From assembly GCA_000004985.1 (NCBI GenBank), contig GG738882.1: 64,000 bases of DNA. One strand, given 5' to 3'. Within the stretch, counting starts at the first letter, position 1. Each line of letters opens with the position of its first letter. Origin of the DNA: Naegleria gruberi (taxonomy: Eukaryota). A program made the position numbers and the translations under genes. Below are positions 3,732 to 18,664 of this stretch, one piece after another. The notes under the pieces are model-generated. The model did not search any database. It had not been told where the DNA came from and saw nothing but the letters and a program-made list of their open reading frames with translations.

Positions 3732-6186
3732 TTATATTGAACTATTGGAAGAAGAAGAGGAAGATATGCTGATGGAAATATCCACTGGTGTGACTGGGAA
3801 ATTATCAGAATCTTCAGTAGGTTCTTCATATTGGAGCATGAATCTAACAAATGTGTCCTTCAAGATCATATTGGTTACAACCTTTTGAAGATCATCCAGC
3901 AAGTCAACTTGGCCAAAACCTTCGATAATTCTTTTAACTATGACTTCTCGTTCCTGCTTTGAAATATTCAAAGGGGTAGGTGAGTCTTCCTTCAAATATT
4001 GGGCAATAATTTCATTTTGCTTTTTAGATCTTTCCGAGGTTCTCTTGATATTCTTATACTTGAGCACATCTTCCAAAAAGTTGAAATTCTCAGCAGAAAA
4101 TTCACTTTCACAGAATTGCTTAATGAAAAGCTTGTTAAATAATTCAAGAATAACTTACTCTAAATAATTCCTTTGAACTCTTTTTTGACATTATCTTTTC
4201 AAATTCGAAAGATTGAATGGTTTCCTGTTGCTGTTTGATACTGGCCATTAATTCATGTTGCTCTTTCATATTTCTTGCAACAATTACATAGACTTCAATC
4301 ATTTCTTCATTCTGAATGATGGTTACTCTGGTAGATGATAATGAAACAGGAAGTTTGTTACCAAGGGCTGTAGACAATAATGCATCCTTTCTCGAATTGG
4401 TATTATACGAAAGAGATTCAAATAAGCCAAGAAATTGATCCGTCTCAGCAGCAAGATCACTAACAAGTAAATAATTTGAAATTGCCAAGGTATTCTTCTT
4501 GAGAATTTTCGTTTCAAATATAGTATTGAAGGTGGCAATTTCTCCATTTTTACAATCCACAGTAAAGATGAAATCAGAGATGGCATTCATGATTACTCTT
4601 GCATGCTGTTCAGAAAGGGATGTTTTCTCTAGTAACTCTTGAATTCTTTCATTCTCAGATACAATGACTGTTTGGGATTCGTCCAATGTTTCCAACATGT
4701 TATTAACATCATCAGTCAATAATCCCAGCTCATCCTTACCCATACACTTGACTCTCTTTTTGAAATTATTGCTAATGGTGATTTCTCTAACTGATTTGGC
4801 AAAATTCATCACTCTCTTAATAACAACAACCTCCAAAAAGACCATTATTGCAAATGAGAGCAGTAAAATCATTGCTGTCATTACTGCCCAAGTAATGATG
4901 AAAGAATTGGTTCCCAAAACAAATACTCTTCTTGCAAAGTCTGTTCTAATGATAATACTGTCATTTCGTGAAATGTCATAATATTTCTGAAATGTTGCCA
5001 TTCTAGATCCATAAGCATTTCCATCATCTTCAATATCTGCACAATATCTATTCTCGGTTATAGGATAAAGATTATTTTGTTGATCAACAAAAAGTGGTTG
5101 ATTGAGCTGAGCCATATTGTCTTTCCATTTTGTTACTGAACTTGAACCATTGATTAGTGTTGTTTTCCAATCCCCAACTCTTTCAGTTAAATAAGTATTG
5201 ATCCATTCGTGATTTTGTTTGAAAATGTATGAGCTGCTCTCTGGAGCACTTTCTCCACTAAGAGCAATTGCTAACAAATACCTATGTCTCCAATATTCCA
5301 TATTAAAGAGGGTAATACAGAGTTGAACTCTATTTGCCATATCTTGCTTGTACTCTGCAAGATCAAATCTAGCAAACACAATCAGGCCATATGTTTTTGT
5401 ATTGTAATCATAATTATCCTGTATTGGCATGCCACTCATAAGAATAATATATGAAAGCAGCTCTGTTTCTGTCATGTTGGCCATTATAGCTTGCTTCTTT
5501 TCATATGAGTTCACTAAATTTGGTAAATCTTTAAATGGAGAGAAGAAGCCGACATGTCTTGTTGAAGGTACATCAACATTCCTCAATAAACGAGCTCCTA
5601 GTTCATTTCTCGACAAATCATTGAACTCTTCTGGTAGATTATCCAAACTTATTCCCCTAAAACATGCTCTAAAAGCGAGCAAAGTTCCATCCTTCTTATA
5701 TAATATTGCAAAATTCAATTTGGAAGCCAGTTGATAATTACAATTCAAATAAGTATCCATATATTTCTCAGTAAATGATGAGTTTGTAGCCATAACAGCA
5801 TCAACAGTATCATTAAATGCTCCATATTCGCTAAGCTTTGATGTCAATGACTGAAAATCATCAAAATAGGCCCTTGTAGTTCTCTTTGCAGCTTCTACAG
5901 AATAAGTCTGCTCAACCGAATTAAACGAAAGTAAAAAGGCAGTCACCAACACAGCCAAACAAATAGCCATCAATAACAGAAATAACACTCCAAGCACTGT
6001 CATTGTTTTAAATCTAATACTACTCAATAAAACAACATCTCTCCTATTGGATTTTAAATTCAAAGTAGATGGTGGTCTCAACTTGACAATTCGAGGACCT
6101 GTTTCCTTAGATCGTTTCATATGATATTCTCTGTAGGCTTTGTCATCTTGCCAGGGAGACTCTGAAGGAGATTGTGATTGATACAT
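3732..6186 (-). CDS. receptor-like protein: cytoplasmic N-terminus, TM, ~370-aa extracytoplasmic sensor domain, TM, HAMP-like linker, PAS-like region, C-terminal RGS domain; 2 exons (~4159..6186, ~3732..4118)
   Basis: TM1 is TMTVLGVLFLLLMAICLAVLVTAFLL. A large N-glycosylation-site-rich ectodomain follows. TM2 is FIITWAVMTAMILLLSFAIMVFLEVVVI. The HAMP signature is KRVKCMGKDELGLLTDDVNNMLETL (DE-G-L...N-M..L). The RGS domain starts with QFCESEFSAENFNFLEDVLKYK and ends with DTFVRFMLQYEE. A 40-nt intron (GTAAGT...CATTAAG) joins ELFR to QFCESEF. No HisKA or HATPase motifs are present. Confidence 0.75.
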
Positions 6187-8522: not shown

Positions 8523-11148
8523 TTAATCAGTACCAACTAGTTGTCTTTCCACTACTTGTTTGTAAAGACCTCCCTTTTGAAGCAGATTGAAATGCTCTCC
8601 TTGTTCCACAACTGAACCTTCCTCAATGACACAAACCTTATTGGCCTTTATCACTGTGGCAAGTTTGTGAGCTATAACGATAACAGTCCTTCCATTCATT
8701 AATGAATTGAGAGCTTGTTGAACTTGGCTGTCATATTGTACTTCTAAAGAATGAGAATATTCGTCCAAAATTAAAATCTTCGGATCCTTCAAAAGGATTC
8801 TAGCAATGGCGATTCTTTGACGTTCAGAGGCAGAAAGTCTGACTCCTCTTTCTCCAATAATAGTATCATATCCATCTTTGAAATTAGAAATAAATTCATG
8901 AACGTTTGCCTTCTTGGATGCTTCCATAACTTGCTCGTCTGTTGGAGCTTCATCACCAGTCCATCCGTAACAAATATTTTCACGAATTGAGGCACTAAAC
9001 ATGGCAGGATCCTGAGTAAGGAGACCAATGTTCTTTCTCAACCAAACAGGATCAATTTGAGTAAGTGGAACACCATCCAATGTAATTTGTCCATCATTTG
9101 GATCATAGAATCTTTGTAAGAGTGAGACAATGGTGGTCTTTCCTTGTCCTGGTCTACCAACCAAAGCCAAAATACTTGATGGTGACATTTCAAGGTTAAT
9201 CTTATTGAGTACTGAGTGTTCGGTTCTTGAAGGATAGGCAAATGAAACATCGTGCAAAACAATGTGACCATTCAATTTTGGAAGTTCTCTAGTATCGGAT
9301 TCCATAACGTTTGGATTACGTCTTTCAATGGCTGGAATACGTTGAAGTAAGTTGTAAACTCTAACAGTAGCCTCCAAAGCTCTAAACAATTCAACCAGCA
9401 ATCCACTCAAGACACCAAAGCTGGCAGCAACCAACAAGGTATACATGATGAAACTAATAAGAGATCCAACAGTTATTTCACCATCCACAACAAGTCTTCC
9501 ACCAAACCACAAAACGAGAATAATACTAGCATTACCAGCAAACATCATACCACCTGAAAAGATACCATTAGCAAATGAGAATTTTCTTGCCAATGAGAGA
9601 GTCAAATCAATAGCAGCACTGTACAAGCTAATATGCTTGGTTTCCTTTGCAAAACTACGAACAGTTCTCAAATTGGAGAAGGACTCTTCAGCAACATCAG
9701 TTGAATTGGCCAAAGCATCTTGTGTTCTCCTTGTGATATTCTTAATATATTTGGCATAAATTAAAGAAATAAAAACGAGTGGAGGTATGACAGCAAGCAT
9801 GATCAGAGTCAATTTCCAAGATATTATCAATAGGAAAACAATTCCACCAATTAATTGAGCCACATAACGTAAAAACATTGAAAGATTCACTGTAACGGCA
9901 TTTTCCAATGATTTTGTATCTGAACTCAATCTATTCAACAATTCTCCAGTTTTAGTGATATCAAAAAATCCAACTTCTTGAACAATGATGGAATTGAAAA
10001 GATCCTTTCTGAGACGGGCAACAGCACGTTCTCCAGCATATGTAAAACTATTATATTTGTAAAATATATAAATGAAATTGATTAGAAGAAACATACCAAA
10101 AGTTTCTCAATGCAGTTGTAAGGCCAATACCAGCCACAACACCTAGTATAATGAGAGCCATTTGATTAATATATTCCTTTCCTGTAGTTCCTGCAGGGAT
10201 GGTATTAATAATCTCGCCAACATAAATTGGTAGGAATAGGCTCAAACCAGTACTAACAATCAAAAATATAATTCCGAAAAAGACGAGTGGTGTTTGTCTA
10301 AATCCTAATTTCATCAACCACATAAATTGAGTAAAACTAATTCTTGGAAAGCTCTTGAAGAGTTTAGCAATGCCAGTAGCACTAACTGGATTTTCATCTA
10401 TAGCATTTGGCTTTAAATAATCATTATACGTATCATCAATATGGTTATCGTAGTATAACAATTCTCGATCGTAATCATCCTCCATGGAAATTTTGGTAGT
10501 GTTTGTAATTTCAACTTCAACATCATCACCATCTTCGAGGTTAACATTTTTCATTTCCTTGTGTTCATTGTGATTTGTTAATTTGACTTTACGATGTTCA
10601 TCATAGTCTTTTTCATTTTCCTCTTCTTCCTCGCTCAGTGATGGTTCATGATGATGGTTCAGGTCAGAACCGAGACTATTACTACTGGAAGTAGTATTAG
10701 CATTTCCATTTGTAGAAGTCAGGGAACCCTTAGAGACCAGAATTTGCTTTCTCTTCGGGAGTGGTGGAGTTTCCAAATCTTGAGCCTCTTCTTCCTTATT
10801 AACATTTCCAAAACGAACACGTAACTTGGATCTATCATCTTTAAAAGCAGGTGTATTTTCTATTGGTTCTTCATCATCCGAATCATTATTCTTCTTTGGT
10901 GTTATTGTCGAATCAACATCATGAGCAGCAGCCGTTGTTGATGGTGATGATGATTTCGATCCGTTAATTGTAGGTGATTTTTCCTTCTTTGTATGATGAG
11001 AGTCTTCATCTTGTTCTTCTTCATGATGATGATGATGCGAGGAAGAAAGTACAATATCATCCAACTCTTCCTCTAAATCTTCGTCTTCCTCATCTTCCAA
11101 AAGTCTCGATTGAGAACGCGTTTTTAACGAGCCAAGTAGTGATGGCAT
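8523..11148 (-). CDS. ABC transporter, B-family half transporter (TMD-NBD) with ~270-aa acidic/His-rich N-terminal extension; exons ~10096..11148 and ~8523..10047
   Basis: The TMD carries the ABCB motif ERAVARLRKDLFNSIIVQEVGFFD. Walker A is LVGRPGQGKTT. The ABC signature is LSASERQRIAIARILL. Walker B is ILILDE. The H-loop is TVIVIAHKL. A 48-nt intron (GTATGT...AATAG) splits ...ALRNF from ...FTYAGERAV. The N-terminal extension contains SSSHHHHHEEEQDEDSHH and D/E runs. Confidence 0.85.
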
Positions 11149-12870: not shown

Positions 12871-13617
<747 letters not shown>

Positions 13618-13915: not shown

Positions 13916-13986
13916 GGGGGCGAGGGGGAATCGAACCCCCGGCCACAGCTTTGGAGGCTGCGATGTTACCATTACACCACCGCCCC
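13916..13986 (-). tRNA. tRNA-Trp (anticodon CCA), 71 nt
   Basis: The minus strand reads GGGGCGGTGGTGTAATGGTAACATCGCAGCCTCCAAAGCTGTGGCCGGGGGTTCGATTCCCCCTCGCCCCC. It folds into a cloverleaf: acceptor GGGGCGG/TCGCCCC, D-arm GTGT-AATGGTA-ACAT, anticodon stem GCAGC/GCTGT with loop CUCCAAA (U33, anticodon CCA, A37), and T-arm GGGGG-TTCGATT-CCCCC. Confidence 0.85.
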
Positions 13987-14154: not shown

Positions 14155-14919
14155 TCAATTCATTTCTCTTGCTTCCTTTCTAATTATTTCACTTTCATTC
14201 TTTAATAATTCTCCTACAAATTCAAGTGAAGATTCATCTTTTTTAACAGCTTGTAAAACTATTTCTCTGTCGTTTCTTAAATTTTCAGAAGCATACTGAA
14301 GTGCTGATCCATGTTGTTTGACAGCTGTCAAGACAATTTCTCTATCATTTTGAAGTTCTTCTGAAGCATTCTTAAGAGTATCACCATGTTGTTTTACAGA
14401 TGTCAATACAATTTCTCTGTCGTTTGTTAATTCTTTTGAAGCAAAGTGAATTTCATATCCATGATGTTGGACAGCTGTCAACATTATTTCTCTGTCATTT
14501 CTCAATTCCTCAGATGCATATTGAACTGCATATCCATCCCGTCTTATAGCTGTCAAGATAATCTCTCTATCATTTCTCAATGCATGATCAGTGACAAATT
14601 TAAGTGCATGAGCATGTGATTTGACAGCATGTAGAACTATCTCTCTATCACTTTTAAACTGTTCAGGAAGAAATTTGAGTGAAAGTCCTTCGTTCTTGAC
14701 AATTGCCAATGCTACTTCTCTATCGTTACGTAATTCCTCAGAGGCACTTTCAAGTACTCTATATCCGCAGACTTCAGCAATCCTTTTGACAACTGGCTTG
14801 TAGTTCCATAATTTTAACCTATCGGCAGTCTCTACCAATTGCTCCTCGTCATCACATTGTAAAAGATTTTGAATTATATCATCGTTGGTGGTGTCAATTT
14901 CTGTCTCTTGTCTATTCAT
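14155..14919 (-). CDS. DUF4116-like repeat protein (254 aa), about seven tandem ~27-aa repeats
   Basis: The recurring unit is LRNDREIVLTAVKQHGxALQYASEEL (also ELRNDREVALAIVKNEGLSLKFLPEQFKSDREIVLHAVKSHAHALKFVTDHALRNDREIIL...). This 'NDREIVL.AVKQ.G.AL.YASEEL' periodicity is characteristic of the DUF4116 repeat family. Confidence 0.65.
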   Translation of the reverse strand: MNRQETEIDTTNDDIIQNLLQCDDEEQLVETADRLKLWNYKPVVKRIAEVCGYRVLESASEELRNDREVALAIVKNEGLSLKFLPEQFKSDREIVLHAVKSHAHALKFVTDHALRNDREIILTAIRRDGYAVQYASEELRNDREIMLTAVQHHGYEIHFASKELTNDREIVLTSVKQHGDTLKNASEELQNDREIVLTAVKQHGSALQYASENLRNDREIVLQAVKKDESSLEFVGELLKNESEIIRKEAREMN

Positions 14920-15247: not shown

Positions 15248-15318
15248 GGGGCGGTGGTGTAATGGTAACATCGCAGCCTCCAAAGCTGTGGCCGGGGGTT
15301 CGATTCCCCCTCGCCCCC
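15248..15318 (+). tRNA. tRNA-Trp (anticodon CCA), second copy, identical to 13916..13986 but on the opposite strand
   Basis: The 71-nt sequence and cloverleaf are the same as the first copy. About 45 nt of 3' flank is also duplicated (CTGTCATTTTAAATTATTTCATTTTTA...TTAATGACAC). Confidence 0.85.
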
Positions 15319-15464: not shown

Positions 15465-17228
15465 TTATTTCCTTGACAAATTATTTGCTGATTTTCCGTT
15501 TTGATTTCCATTATTATTAGCTGCCTTCTTTTCTCTTTCCTTAATAACCTTGTCAATCTTCATCTTTCTCTGGAATTGAACACCAAGTTTAAATCTTTGT
15601 AAAGTATCCAACATGACAACTGCAATTTCATTTTGTAAAGGTTCAAATAAATCATCAGGAAGTTGATCATTCATTTTCTTATCTGGATTGGTGACTAATT
15701 GATCAGAGTCAACTGAAAAGAGTGTGAATTCTTGTAAAAGAGCTTCAACTTGATCGGCAAATCTCTTACTCACATTCACTGAGTTTTTACCATCCAATCT
15801 CAAAAAGTCAACCAAAATTTCATTAGCCAATTCAAATCTCTTATTACAAACAATCTTGTACTCCTCCTCAGTGACATTCTTAATCTTTTTCTTCTTTTTG
15901 AGTGATGACTTGTTATCAGTATCATTAAATGAAAGAGCTGGATTAGTTTGAGTCTTTTTCTGAGAATTATGAGTGGTGGTACTGTGACTTCCACTGGTAA
16001 TTGAGTTTTGTTTCGTTTGATTATCACCAGAGGACACACTCGAGATGGCATCAGTGTCATTTCCAGAAGTGACACTCTTGGCAGCTCCATGATCATCTGT
16101 TTCACTTGTAGAGCTAGTGTCTGTAAAGAGAATATCTTGCATTTCCCAAATTTGTCTCGAATATTCACGATACAAATTAGTTCTAATCAAAACTTCATAA
16201 TTTTCCAATGATAATTCTTGTTTACAATGTTGCTTGAATAAATCTCTCAATTTTGGATCATTCATCACATCTAAAAGCATGACAGCTTTGGCCTTCTTTA
16301 ATCTTTCTCTATTCAAAGCTTCCTTATTAAGAGCTGCCACGAATAGGAAAATCATGACAGGTAGCACAATAATAAATGCAATTATTGTCACTGAAGAAAT
16401 GATAATTGTATAAATTCCCATCCAATTATCTTCAGTATCTGACAAGTAAGATGACATGTCTTCAATGATGGCAATCTTTTTTTCAAACATTTCTTTTAAA
16501 CCTTCATATTCTTCTCCTTCAATAATTGCAATAGCTGTCCCAGTTGAGTTGACATCAATAATCTGTTTCTCCAAAATTTTCAGTTTCGAATGAGCATCCA
16601 TTAGTTCACTAATCACAACATTTTTATCATAATCATGATTAGCAAAATCCTCTACAGGAATAATATTAAAAATCTCATTCAGCATACTATCAATCCAATC
16701 CTGATGTGCCTCTAAATGATTATCCAAATTATTATTCGAATGAGCACTTTGATTATTCAAAAGTTTCGTCAAGCCATCACTCGGATGCACAATAAACGAA
16801 TCCTGATCGAAAATACTCCTATCACTCATATTCAAATAAGCCTTCAAATGCAACCCACTCGTAATCAACTGCTGAATAACCAACACATCTTTCGTCGTCT
16901 TGTATACGAAATTATCCACCTGCGAACGTAATACGAAAGTTTGTGGAAAGATCACTACCAACGCAACCAACAATAACACACTCACCACAATCCCACAAAC
17001 TGACAATAACTTGACCATTGAAATTCGATAGGATTTTTTCTTCTTCATTAGAAAACAACAACAACATGAAGGAAGGACGAGATAGAAACCACGACCATTT
17101 CGACCACTTTTAGAATTGTCGTTGTTGGTTGTGGAAGAGTTGGCTGTTCCTCCTTGAACAGTGTGTTTTTCTTTGGGAAGGGAGAGGAATTGGTGAGAGG
17201 TGTCAGCTGTTGGTAATTGATTTGACAT
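15465..17228 (-). CDS. receptor-like protein: TM - ~230-aa extracytoplasmic domain - TM - split RGS domain (587 aa, single exon)
   Basis: TM1 is LLSVCGIVVSVLLLVALVVIF. TM2 is IYTIIISSVTIIAFIIVLPVMIFLFVAAL. The RGS N-terminal box is LRDLFKQHCKQELSLENYEVLIRTNLY. An S/T/N-rich insertion of ~90 aa follows. The RGS core is FELANEILVDFLRLDGKNSVNVSKRFADQVEALLQ and the C-terminal box is LQNEIAVVMLDTLQRFKLGVQF. Confidence 0.75.
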   Translation of the reverse strand: MSNQLPTADTSHQFLSLPKEKHTVQGGTANSSTTNNDNSKSGRNGRGFYLVLPSCCCCFLMKKKKSYRISMVKLLSVCGIVVSVLLLVALVVIFPQTFVLRSQVDNFVYKTTKDVLVIQQLITSGLHLKAYLNMSDRSIFDQDSFIVHPSDGLTKLLNNQSAHSNNNLDNHLEAHQDWIDSMLNEIFNIIPVEDFANHDYDKNVVISELMDAHSKLKILEKQIIDVNSTGTAIAIIEGEEYEGLKEMFEKKIAIIEDMSSYLSDTEDNWMGIYTIIISSVTIIAFIIVLPVMIFLFVAALNKEALNRERLKKAKAVMLLDVMNDPKLRDLFKQHCKQELSLENYEVLIRTNLYREYSRQIWEMQDILFTDTSSTSETDDHGAAKSVTSGNDTDAISSVSSGDNQTKQNSITSGSHSTTTHNSQKKTQTNPALSFNDTDNKSSLKKKKKIKNVTEEEYKIVCNKRFELANEILVDFLRLDGKNSVNVSKRFADQVEALLQEFTLFSVDSDQLVTNPDKKMNDQLPDDLFEPLQNEIAVVMLDTLQRFKLGVQFQRKMKIDKVIKEREKKAANNNGNQNGKSANNLSRK

Positions 17229-17683: not shown

Positions 17684-18664
17684 ATGACTTTAAACCACAC
17701 CACCACCTCATCCTCGTCACACGTATTACCAACAGAAACAACGACCGTTCGCTTCTCATTATTAAATAGTAACAGCAAAAAGTTTAACCTCGTTGATTCG
17801 AATATTTATAAAAAGAAACCTAACGGTTGTGGATGTGCTTTATGTTCATTCTTTATGAATGATTTTCCAGAGAGTTTAAATGCCGAAGATTATGAACCTT
17901 CACGTGTTGAGCAAGTAGCAAACATTGTGACACATGGCATTCCATTAATTATACTTTCGTATATTTTCTACTTGACCTCACATGTTGTAAATACGAAATT
18001 AGAGATGATTTCATCTGTTCTGTATTGTTCGAGTCTTTTCATTCTATTATCCATATCGACATTGTATCATGTCATGTGTTTAATTCATGGAAAACAATCA
18101 AGTAAGACCTATTGGTTTCGAATAATTGATTATGCAACAATTTACATATTCATTGCTGCATCCTATACACCATACTTGCTCGTAGTTGGTATTGGCCATG
18201 AAAACTTTTATGGAAAATTGATGGCTGCATTTATTTGGTTATTGGCAATATGTGGCTTGGTAAAATCATTTTCAGAAGGAAGATTGCTGGCATTTATTAA
18301 TAATAATGCATTATTTAACTTGATGGGATGGGCAGCTCTACTTGCCATGCCAACCTCAATGTTTATTCATGTTCCCTTGGAGGCATTCTTGACCTTACTA
18401 TTTGGAGGAATATTCTTCTCTGGTGGAGTTTATTTTCTAAAAAAGGATGGAGTCATTCCATTTGCTCATGCAATTTGGCATATATTGTCTGTGTGTGGAT
18501 TCTTGATGCATTTCTTTTCAATTTATTATTACATCTTTCAATTGGATGGATTGTTCGTTCCACATGGAGTTTACAATTCAAAAATGGCGTATGAGCAAAT
18601 TATTGAAACACTTACTGGGCAGAGAATGCCATTTGGTCATTTGCGTGTATCCCCAATACACTAA
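17684..18664 (+). CDS. PAQR / hemolysin-III family 7-TM protein (326 aa)
   Basis: Family motifs are present in the canonical order. ANIVTHGIP matches NxxTHxxG. STLYHV matches SxxYH. IDYATIYIFIAASYTPY matches D.xxI..IAGSYTP. HAIWHILSV matches HxxWHxxV. Confidence 0.8.
   Translation: MTLNHTTTSSSSHVLPTETTTVRFSLLNSNSKKFNLVDSNIYKKKPNGCGCALCSFFMNDFPESLNAEDYEPSRVEQVANIVTHGIPLIILSYIFYLTSHVVNTKLEMISSVLYCSSLFILLSISTLYHVMCLIHGKQSSKTYWFRIIDYATIYIFIAASYTPYLLVVGIGHENFYGKLMAAFIWLLAICGLVKSFSEGRLLAFINNNALFNLMGWAALLAMPTSMFIHVPLEAFLTLLFGGIFFSGGVYFLKKDGVIPFAHAIWHILSVCGFLMHFFSIYYYIFQLDGLFVPHGVYNSKMAYEQIIETLTGQRMPFGHLRVSPIH

Follow-up and report, generated by a model that had tools for sequence, protein, structure and literature searches.

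Receptor-type RGS proteins have been proposed as the ancestral means by which plants and many protists control self-activating G proteins, and most eukaryotic lineages have RGS domains that are fused to one or more transmembrane (TM) helices (PMC3971589). In Naegleria fowleri, the subunits Gα5 and Gα7 activate themselves, with nucleotide exchange outpacing GTP hydrolysis; the genome encodes 28 seven-TM (7TM) RGS proteins together with 79 other RGS proteins, and the RGS domains of Naegleria 7TM-RGS proteins speed the Gα GTPase (PMC9283941). Even for AtRGS1 and the 7TM-RGS proteins of Naegleria, it has yet to be explained how an extracellular cue alters such GTPase-activating protein (GAP) activity (PMC9283941). 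Here, we describe the product of NAEGRDRAFT_70170, a gene on the minus strand of a 64,000-nucleotide stretch (the window) of Naegleria gruberi contig GG738882.1 (assembly GCA_000004985.1), which is a two-TM (2TM) membrane protein with an RGS domain as its sole folded cytoplasmic module. On balance, it is taken to be a receptor-type GAP for Naegleria Gα, in which a predicted extracellular helical bundle would act as the sensor and regulate a canonical RGS domain via the helix of the second TM segment (TM2).

The gene corresponds to a complete and uninterrupted open reading frame (ORF) of 587 codons plus stop in the ORF list (15465..17228), and the product matches N. gruberi XP_002674826.1 (UniProt D2VMK7) at 100% identity from end to end. 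The NCBI model is likewise a single exon without an intron, and the database names are only 'predicted protein' or uncharacterized. A class of function is now assigned to this unannotated N. gruberi gene. A first-pass annotation of the window, made from the sequence and the ORF list, had guessed at a dictyostelid source. This was wrong and is rejected, as the protein identity places the window in N. gruberi, a member of the Heterolobosea.

Membrane segments and the RGS domain

Two strongly hydrophobic segments are found at residues ~72-100 (TM1) and ~270-300 (TM2) by Kyte-Doolittle hydropathy, with 19-residue means of up to 3.1 at TM1, and these bracket an extracytoplasmic domain as originally proposed. 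However, the ~230 aa first given for this domain is too long. The inter-TM loop covers only ~170 aa (residues 101-269), and a span of ~229 aa is reached when both TM segments are counted in, from the first residue of TM1 to the last of TM2.

The RGS domain is C-terminal to the membrane part and starts ~14 residues after TM2. Its N-terminal box, LFKQHCKQELSLENYEVL, begins at residue 330, 30 residues downstream of TM2 and thus inside the ~35 residues estimated earlier. The first-pass annotation also described an RGS fold that is interrupted by an S/T/N-rich insertion and then resumes, and this arrangement was recovered: residues 366-452 are of low complexity (45% S+T+N, with a Lys run at the end), and RGS sequence picks up again afterwards with ANEILVDFLRLDGKNSVNVSKRF ... 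VVMLDTLQRFKLGVQF. With the insert deleted, the protein matches Pfam RGS (PF00615, gathering threshold 23.9 bits) in a single stretch at 28.4 bits (E 2.4e-6; profile positions 4-100 of 117), and 37 of the 48 family members described below also have Pfam RGS matches. An AlphaFold2 model of the full-length protein was built on the alignment of these 48 members. Predicted local distance difference test (pLDDT) values are ~90-97 for the helices in residues 325-373 and 454-574, which are packed together, and below 50 for residues 379-444, which are disordered. Both halves therefore assemble into one fold in the model, and the domain is, as predicted, a genuine RGS domain with one contiguous nine-helix fold.

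The Gα switch-contact residues of RGS4 (S85, E87, N88, N128, D163, S164 and R167) align with S340, E342, N343, N485, D541, T542 and R545, respectively, the first three falling in the motif S340-L-E342-N343 of the N-terminal half. The alignment used the rat RGS4 sequence, whose residue numbering was checked internally. The seven aligned residues are also the majority residues at their positions across the family alignment. The RGS domain most likely speeds GTP hydrolysis on at least one Naegleria Gα.

Exactly two RGS loops are lengthened, the α4-α5 loop that carries the insertion and the α6-α7 loop, which has 28 aa compared with the usual 14. In the RGS4-Giα1 structure, both loops lie at the far end of the four-helix sub-bundle, away from the face that binds Gα. 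Length at the α4-α5 site varies by 0-92 aa across the family, and NAEGRDRAFT_70170 and its closest relative, P0002 (35% identity), have the longest inserts, which are equal in length and have conserved edges. As insert lengths vary in this way between relatives, the apparent split of the domain represents a family-wide hot spot for low-complexity insertions. The S/T-rich insert is a tolerated, variable loop and may be a handle for phosphorylation or trafficking.

The cytoplasmic parts outside the RGS domain are low-confidence, low-complexity tails in the AlphaFold2 model, leaving the RGS domain as the only folded cytoplasmic module, as had been claimed. Pfam searches with the query and the 48 family members found no further cytoplasmic domain, and there was no significant NCBIfam match for the query.

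The ectodomain and its family

In the full-length model, the ectodomain includes four long helices predicted with high confidence (residues ~107-132, 168-189, 202-225 and 239-269), and residues ~133-167 form a low-confidence loop particular to NAEGRDRAFT_70170. The helices form a predicted up-down four-helix bundle between TM1 and TM2. TM1 extends into ectodomain helix 1, both in this model and in a further one that was built independently for residues 66-310 only (pLDDT 84.7, predicted TM-score 0.73), and helix 4 is continuous with TM2, running unbroken from residue 239 to 323 and into RGS helix α1 in the AlphaFold2 model. In structural comparisons, the top score (14.9, 150 of 158 residues aligned) was obtained with the ligand-binding domain (LBD) of Vibrio Vc1313, followed by MCP2201-LBD (14.7), the Rhodopseudomonas HK9 sensor (13.6), PcaY_PP (12.9) and McpN (12.6), and then by QseE, LytS, NarQ, Tsr and Tar, whereas de novo designed, generic and cytoskeletal bundles scored 11.9 or less. 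When the model of residues 66-310 was used, LBDs of Tar, Tsr, Vc1313 and MCP2201 filled nearly the whole Foldseek top 20.

When 1.84 billion representatives of clusters at 50% identity were searched exhaustively with phmmer, 66 proteins were found at E ≤1e-3, 42 at ≤1e-10 and 11 at ≤1e-30, the E-values of 65 relatives ranging from 8e-90 to 1e-3. Word-indexed protein searches using the full-length protein, the protein with low-complexity sequence removed, or the family alignment matched only the query, presumably because low-complexity words dominated the candidates. The family hidden Markov model gives the query a score of 382.6 bits. Thirty representatives were looked up, and all of those with names are from Naegleria or Willaertia (N. 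gruberi, N. fowleri, N. lovaniensis and Willaertia magna), the remainder being metagenome or ENA contigs without names. At least ten family members are N. gruberi paralogues, and NAEGRDRAFT_70170 is an ordinary paralogue within this lineage-specific expansion. One N. gruberi member is already annotated as 'RGS and transmembrane domain-containing protein' and several as 'RGS domain-containing protein'.

All 48 full-length members share the order TM1, a loop of ~125-170 aa, TM2 and then RGS, and the starts of TM1 and TM2 are ~160-170 residues apart in the complete members. Pro290 (16359..16361, minus strand), in the middle of TM2, is the sole invariant residue in the 48-member alignment. It is 44 residues from the near-invariant RGS residue Cys335 in 46 of 48 members, and 57 residues from the conserved ectodomain residue Ala232 in 40 of 48, indicating from the alignment that the stretch joining sensor and RGS domain has essentially no indels in the family as a whole. 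Three regions vary freely, namely the N-terminal tail, with lengths of 38-678 aa, the α4-α5 site and the first half of the ectodomain. Mean pairwise identity is 15.6% for the ectodomain compared with 34-36% for the RGS halves, consistent with a diversified sensor on a conserved output.

A further motif, h-x-T-C-C-G-x-h-E-L-[ST], is found on the cytoplasmic side, 5-8 residues ahead of TM1, in most members. At least one Cys is present within 28 aa before TM1 in 45 of 48 members, and CC in 27 of 48. The version in the query, PSCCCCFLMKKKK, is a CCCC and KKKK variant, and the Cys cluster is a candidate palmitoylation site.

Two irregular arrangements were seen. A W. magna member (P0030, KAL9656166.1, 1302 aa) has four TM segments and looks like either tandem receptor units or adjacent paralogues fused in the gene model. 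Members P0053 and P0056 would be tandem paralogues if both are on one 8874-bp ENA contig.

Proposed function and competing readings

For a receptor-type GAP, the chain would enter the membrane at TM1 with the N-terminus inside, form a glycosylatable four-helix bundle outside, and return through TM2 as a continuous helix that becomes α1 of the cytoplasmic RGS domain. A ligand would bind the bundle, probably in a homodimer as in chemoreceptors, and binding would shift or rotate the rod formed by helix 4 and TM2, with a hinge at the invariant Pro290, which may serve as the hinge of a signalling helix. Movement of the rod would alter how the RGS domain is offered to Gα at the membrane, and signalling through G proteins would then be tuned by regulated deactivation and not by receptor-catalysed nucleotide exchange. 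The protein is probably at the cell surface. We infer the plasma-membrane location, dimerisation, ligand binding, GAP activity, signal transmission and the roles of the insert and of palmitoylation from sequence and models.

Several results weigh against this reading. The full-length protein scores 23.7 bits against Pfam RGS, 0.2 bits below the threshold, and does so in two stretches, and a search of PDB chains with the family profile returned only RGS8 (E ~0.4); a single-sequence phmmer search of PDB sequences found no match. The four-helix bundle is called from predicted structures, and the Foldseek E-values are 0.09-1. Pfam found nothing significant in the query ectodomain, including no 4HB_MCP_1/TarH match; only 3 of 31 family ectodomains touched 4HB_MCP_1, the best (E 0.052) below threshold, and the ectodomain profile found no sensor domain among PDB sequences. 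The four-helix bundle is a common fold that may have arisen by convergence, and no conserved ligand-binding motif was identified in the ectodomain. Because the Foldseek E-values are weak, the 4HB_MCP_1 matches sparse and the PDB profile search empty, the predicted ectodomain is claimed to resemble bacterial sensors in fold and architecture, short of homology.

One rival reading is a constitutive membrane-anchored GAP, in which the TM segments and the helical loop only tether, and perhaps dimerise, the RGS domain beside lipid-anchored Gα. There would be no sensing outside the cell, and control would come from expression, phosphorylation of the insert or endocytosis. The low ectodomain identity without a conserved ligand-binding motif and the lack of a significant sequence match to any sensor family favour such a tether, as does the wide occurrence of TM-RGS fusions in eukaryotic lineages (PMC3971589). 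However, a folded extracellular bundle of ~125-170 aa is retained in every full-length member, the best structural matches are to sensor domains and rank above generic bundles, and a nearly indel-free link from bundle through TM2 to RGS is not needed by a mere tether. Fast divergence of the ectodomain combined with a conserved output is also the usual pattern in receptor families. A simple tether is, for these reasons, considered unlikely.

Less probable again is an RGS-like domain that is not a GAP, but a Gα-binding effector or scaffold, or a domain that does not bind G proteins. There are precedents for this in GRK, axin, the rgRGS domains of RhoGEFs and SNX13/14/25. However, all seven of the mapped RGS4 Gα-contact positions are kept, including N485, the equivalent of Asn128, and none of the partner domains PXA, PX, kinase, DH-PH or DIX was found by Pfam. 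In addition, 7TM-RGS proteins of Naegleria have RGS domains that do work as GAPs (PMC9283941).

A topology in which a signal peptide is cleaved off and one TM helix remains, or in which the RGS domain points into the lumen or outwards, is very improbable and was raised only as a caveat in the first-pass annotation, which had itself preferred an in-out-in arrangement. In NAEGRDRAFT_70170, 71 residues come before TM1, and in the relatives 38-678, which puts TM1 too far from the N-terminus for a cleavable signal peptide, and it is therefore read as a signal anchor. Over the 48 family members, the 15 residues that follow TM2 include a mean of 4.79 Lys+Arg, compared with 1.58 before TM2. N-glycosylation sequons (N-x-S/T) are enriched over composition only in the inter-TM loop, where observed/expected is 1.84; the N-terminal tails have a value of 0.97 and the C-terminal parts one of 1.12. 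As RGS domains work on cytoplasmic Gα, the charge bias and the sequon pattern together support a topology with the N-terminus inside, the loop outside and the C-terminus inside, and the version with a signal peptide and one TM helix is rejected.

A chance ORF or decaying paralogue would agree with the public name of 'predicted protein' and with the lack of any mention of the locus tag in the literature searched, but is scarcely credible given an uninterrupted 587-codon ORF where G+C is 32% (genome figure), a closest relative conserved end to end, including the insert edges, and the functional RGS residues that are kept.

The receptor-type GAP reading can be extended to the whole of a large Naegleria and Willaertia family of at least 66 clusters, in which prokaryote-type bundle sensors would drive RGS domains via a rigid TM2, by piston movement or rotation at the invariant proline, and would convert environmental ligands into deactivation of self-activating Gα. 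The sensor could possibly be a bacterial graft. This extension is tentative and, taken as a whole, doubtful.

A two-helix receptor could provide a far simpler system in which to ask how a cue reaches a GAP. Its predicted sensor is similar to the bacterial transmembrane signalling module that is best understood, and just one helix, whose length is fixed, connects this sensor with the RGS domain. Ectodomain ligand screens, Tar chimeras and linker register mutants are all approaches already in use. The chemoreceptor-like design of the family would be a tractable handle on the extracellular regulation of GAP activity, and paralogues are also present in N. fowleri, a pathogen in which components of G-protein signalling are being considered as drug targets.

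Features, neighbouring genes and known systems

The features of NAEGRDRAFT_70170 are listed in Table 1.

Table 1. Predicted features of NAEGRDRAFT_70170, with positions in the 64,000-nucleotide window.
Feature	Position	Strand	Basis
Complete coding sequence of a putative 2TM receptor-type RGS protein	15465..17228	-	ORF list, NCBI identity, phmmer relatives
N-terminal tail, residues 1-71, predicted cytoplasmic, disordered, low-complexity	17016..17228	-	pLDDT <50 at residues 1-45
Cys cluster and poly-Lys, PSCCCCFLMKKKK, residues 53-65, before TM1	17034..17072	-	family motif variant
TM1, residues 72-100, putative signal anchor, N-terminus inside	16929..17015	-	hydropathy, models
Extracytoplasmic domain, residues 101-269, predicted antiparallel four-helix bundle	16422..16928	-	
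TM2, residues 270-300, contains Pro290	16329..16421	-	hydropathy, invariant column, predicted helix
Basic juxtamembrane linker, NKEALNRERLKKA, residues 301-313, predicted helical, runs into RGS helix α1	16290..16328	-	
RGS N-terminal half, residues 314-373, α1-α4	16110..16289	-	Pfam RGS, pLDDT 94-97, RGS4 alignment
Disordered S/T-rich insertion, residues 374-453, in the RGS α4-α5 loop, with poly-Lys end	15870..16109	-	
RGS C-terminal half, residues 454-560, helices α5-α9	15549..15869	-	
C-terminal tail, residues 561-587, basic, low-complexity	15468..15548	-	sequence; pLDDT down to 49-68

A second gene in the window, 3732..6186 (minus strand, one intron at ~4077..4143), has the same order of TM, ectodomain and TM, and also ends in an RGS domain. 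This domain, in exon 2, scores 38.5 bits against Pfam RGS and 37.5 bits against the NAEGRDRAFT_70170 2TM-RGS family profile. CHASE4 (22.9 bits, cut-off 26.2) and HAMP (21.8 bits, cut-off 25) both match below threshold. Unlike NAEGRDRAFT_70170, the protein has an ectodomain of ~340 aa, after which come the HAMP-like match and another ~200 aa ahead of the RGS domain. The first-pass annotation saw no obvious similarity between the two ectodomains and suggested that different sensor domains had been coupled independently to an RGS output. BLASTP between the ectodomains found no similarity, and a predicted four-helix bundle set beside an ectodomain with sub-threshold CHASE4 and HAMP matches agrees with this suggestion. 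The comparison supports, at the level of sequence, the coupling of different sensor modules to RGS outputs in the N. gruberi genome.

The divergent neighbour of NAEGRDRAFT_70170, at 17684..18664 (plus strand), predicts a seven-TM protein of the HlyIII/PAQR family (Pfam E 7.7e-22) and is ~455 bp from the start codon of the RGS gene. On the other side, a tRNA-Trp (CCA) gene at 15248..15318 (plus strand) is ~150 bp past the stop codon. A second tRNA-Trp (CCA) gene is at 13916..13986 in the opposite orientation (minus strand), and the two are on either side of a gene at 14155..14919 (minus strand) that predicts a 254-aa protein with seven DUF4116 repeats (Pfam E 7e-110). Further away are a polyubiquitin gene with three ubiquitin repeats at 12928..13617 (plus strand) and an ABC transporter (ABC_membrane and ABC_tran) at 8523..11148 (minus strand). 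The latter is split over the overlapping ORFs 8523..10094 and 10051..11148, which implies that an intron or a frameshift lies where they meet.

The RGS domain itself is closest to those of the R4 type (RGS4, RGS3, RGS8 and RGS1). The predicted nine-helix fold superposes on these at ~2 Å and keeps the Gα-contact residues, but identity is only 18-22%, and the ~80-aa disordered α4-α5 insert, the longer α6-α7 loop and the fusion to a membrane receptor set NAEGRDRAFT_70170 apart. In SNX13, SNX14 and SNX25, PXA and PX domains flank the RGS domain and a PXC domain is also present. NAEGRDRAFT_70170 differs in having a folded 170-aa domain between its TM helices, and no PXA or PX domain was found by Pfam in the query or its 48 relatives; an SNX-type RGS-PX protein is rejected, as PXA, PX and PXC are all lacking.

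The predicted ectodomain resembles, in fold and placement, that of bacterial chemoreceptors and kinases that have four-helix sensors, namely Tar, Tsr, Vc1313, MCP2201, PcaY, McpN, NarX/NarQ, HK9 and QseE. However, NAEGRDRAFT_70170 belongs to a eukaryotic host and has an RGS output, without a HAMP, methyl-accepting or kinase module. There is no significant sequence similarity to the bacterial receptors, leaving common descent unproven, and the bundle described here is that of a predicted monomer.

The literature covered, which did not include the survey of Anantharaman et al. 2011, has nothing specific on a Naegleria RGS protein with a chemoreceptor, four-helix-bundle or CHASE sensor, or on a 2TM four-helix-bundle form of RGS protein. 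The closest described systems are the 7TM-RGS proteins of Arabidopsis (AtRGS1), Trichomonas and N. fowleri, in which a cytoplasmic RGS domain likewise comes C-terminal to the membrane part. The logic is presumed to be the same, with an extracellular cue modulating the deactivation of self-activating Gα, and the same genus has 28 such proteins (N. fowleri; PMC9283941). The differences are that NAEGRDRAFT_70170 has two TM segments, by hydropathy and in the model, in place of seven, for which reason identification as a 7TM-RGS protein is rejected; that the sensor of the 7TM-RGS proteins is the 7TM core or an N-terminal EGF or lectin domain, whereas here it would be a four-helix bundle between the TM segments; and that TM2 here leads straight into the RGS domain as one continuous predicted helix. 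The best reading is that the 2TM four-helix-bundle form is a new variation on the known theme of transmembrane receptor-type RGS proteins.

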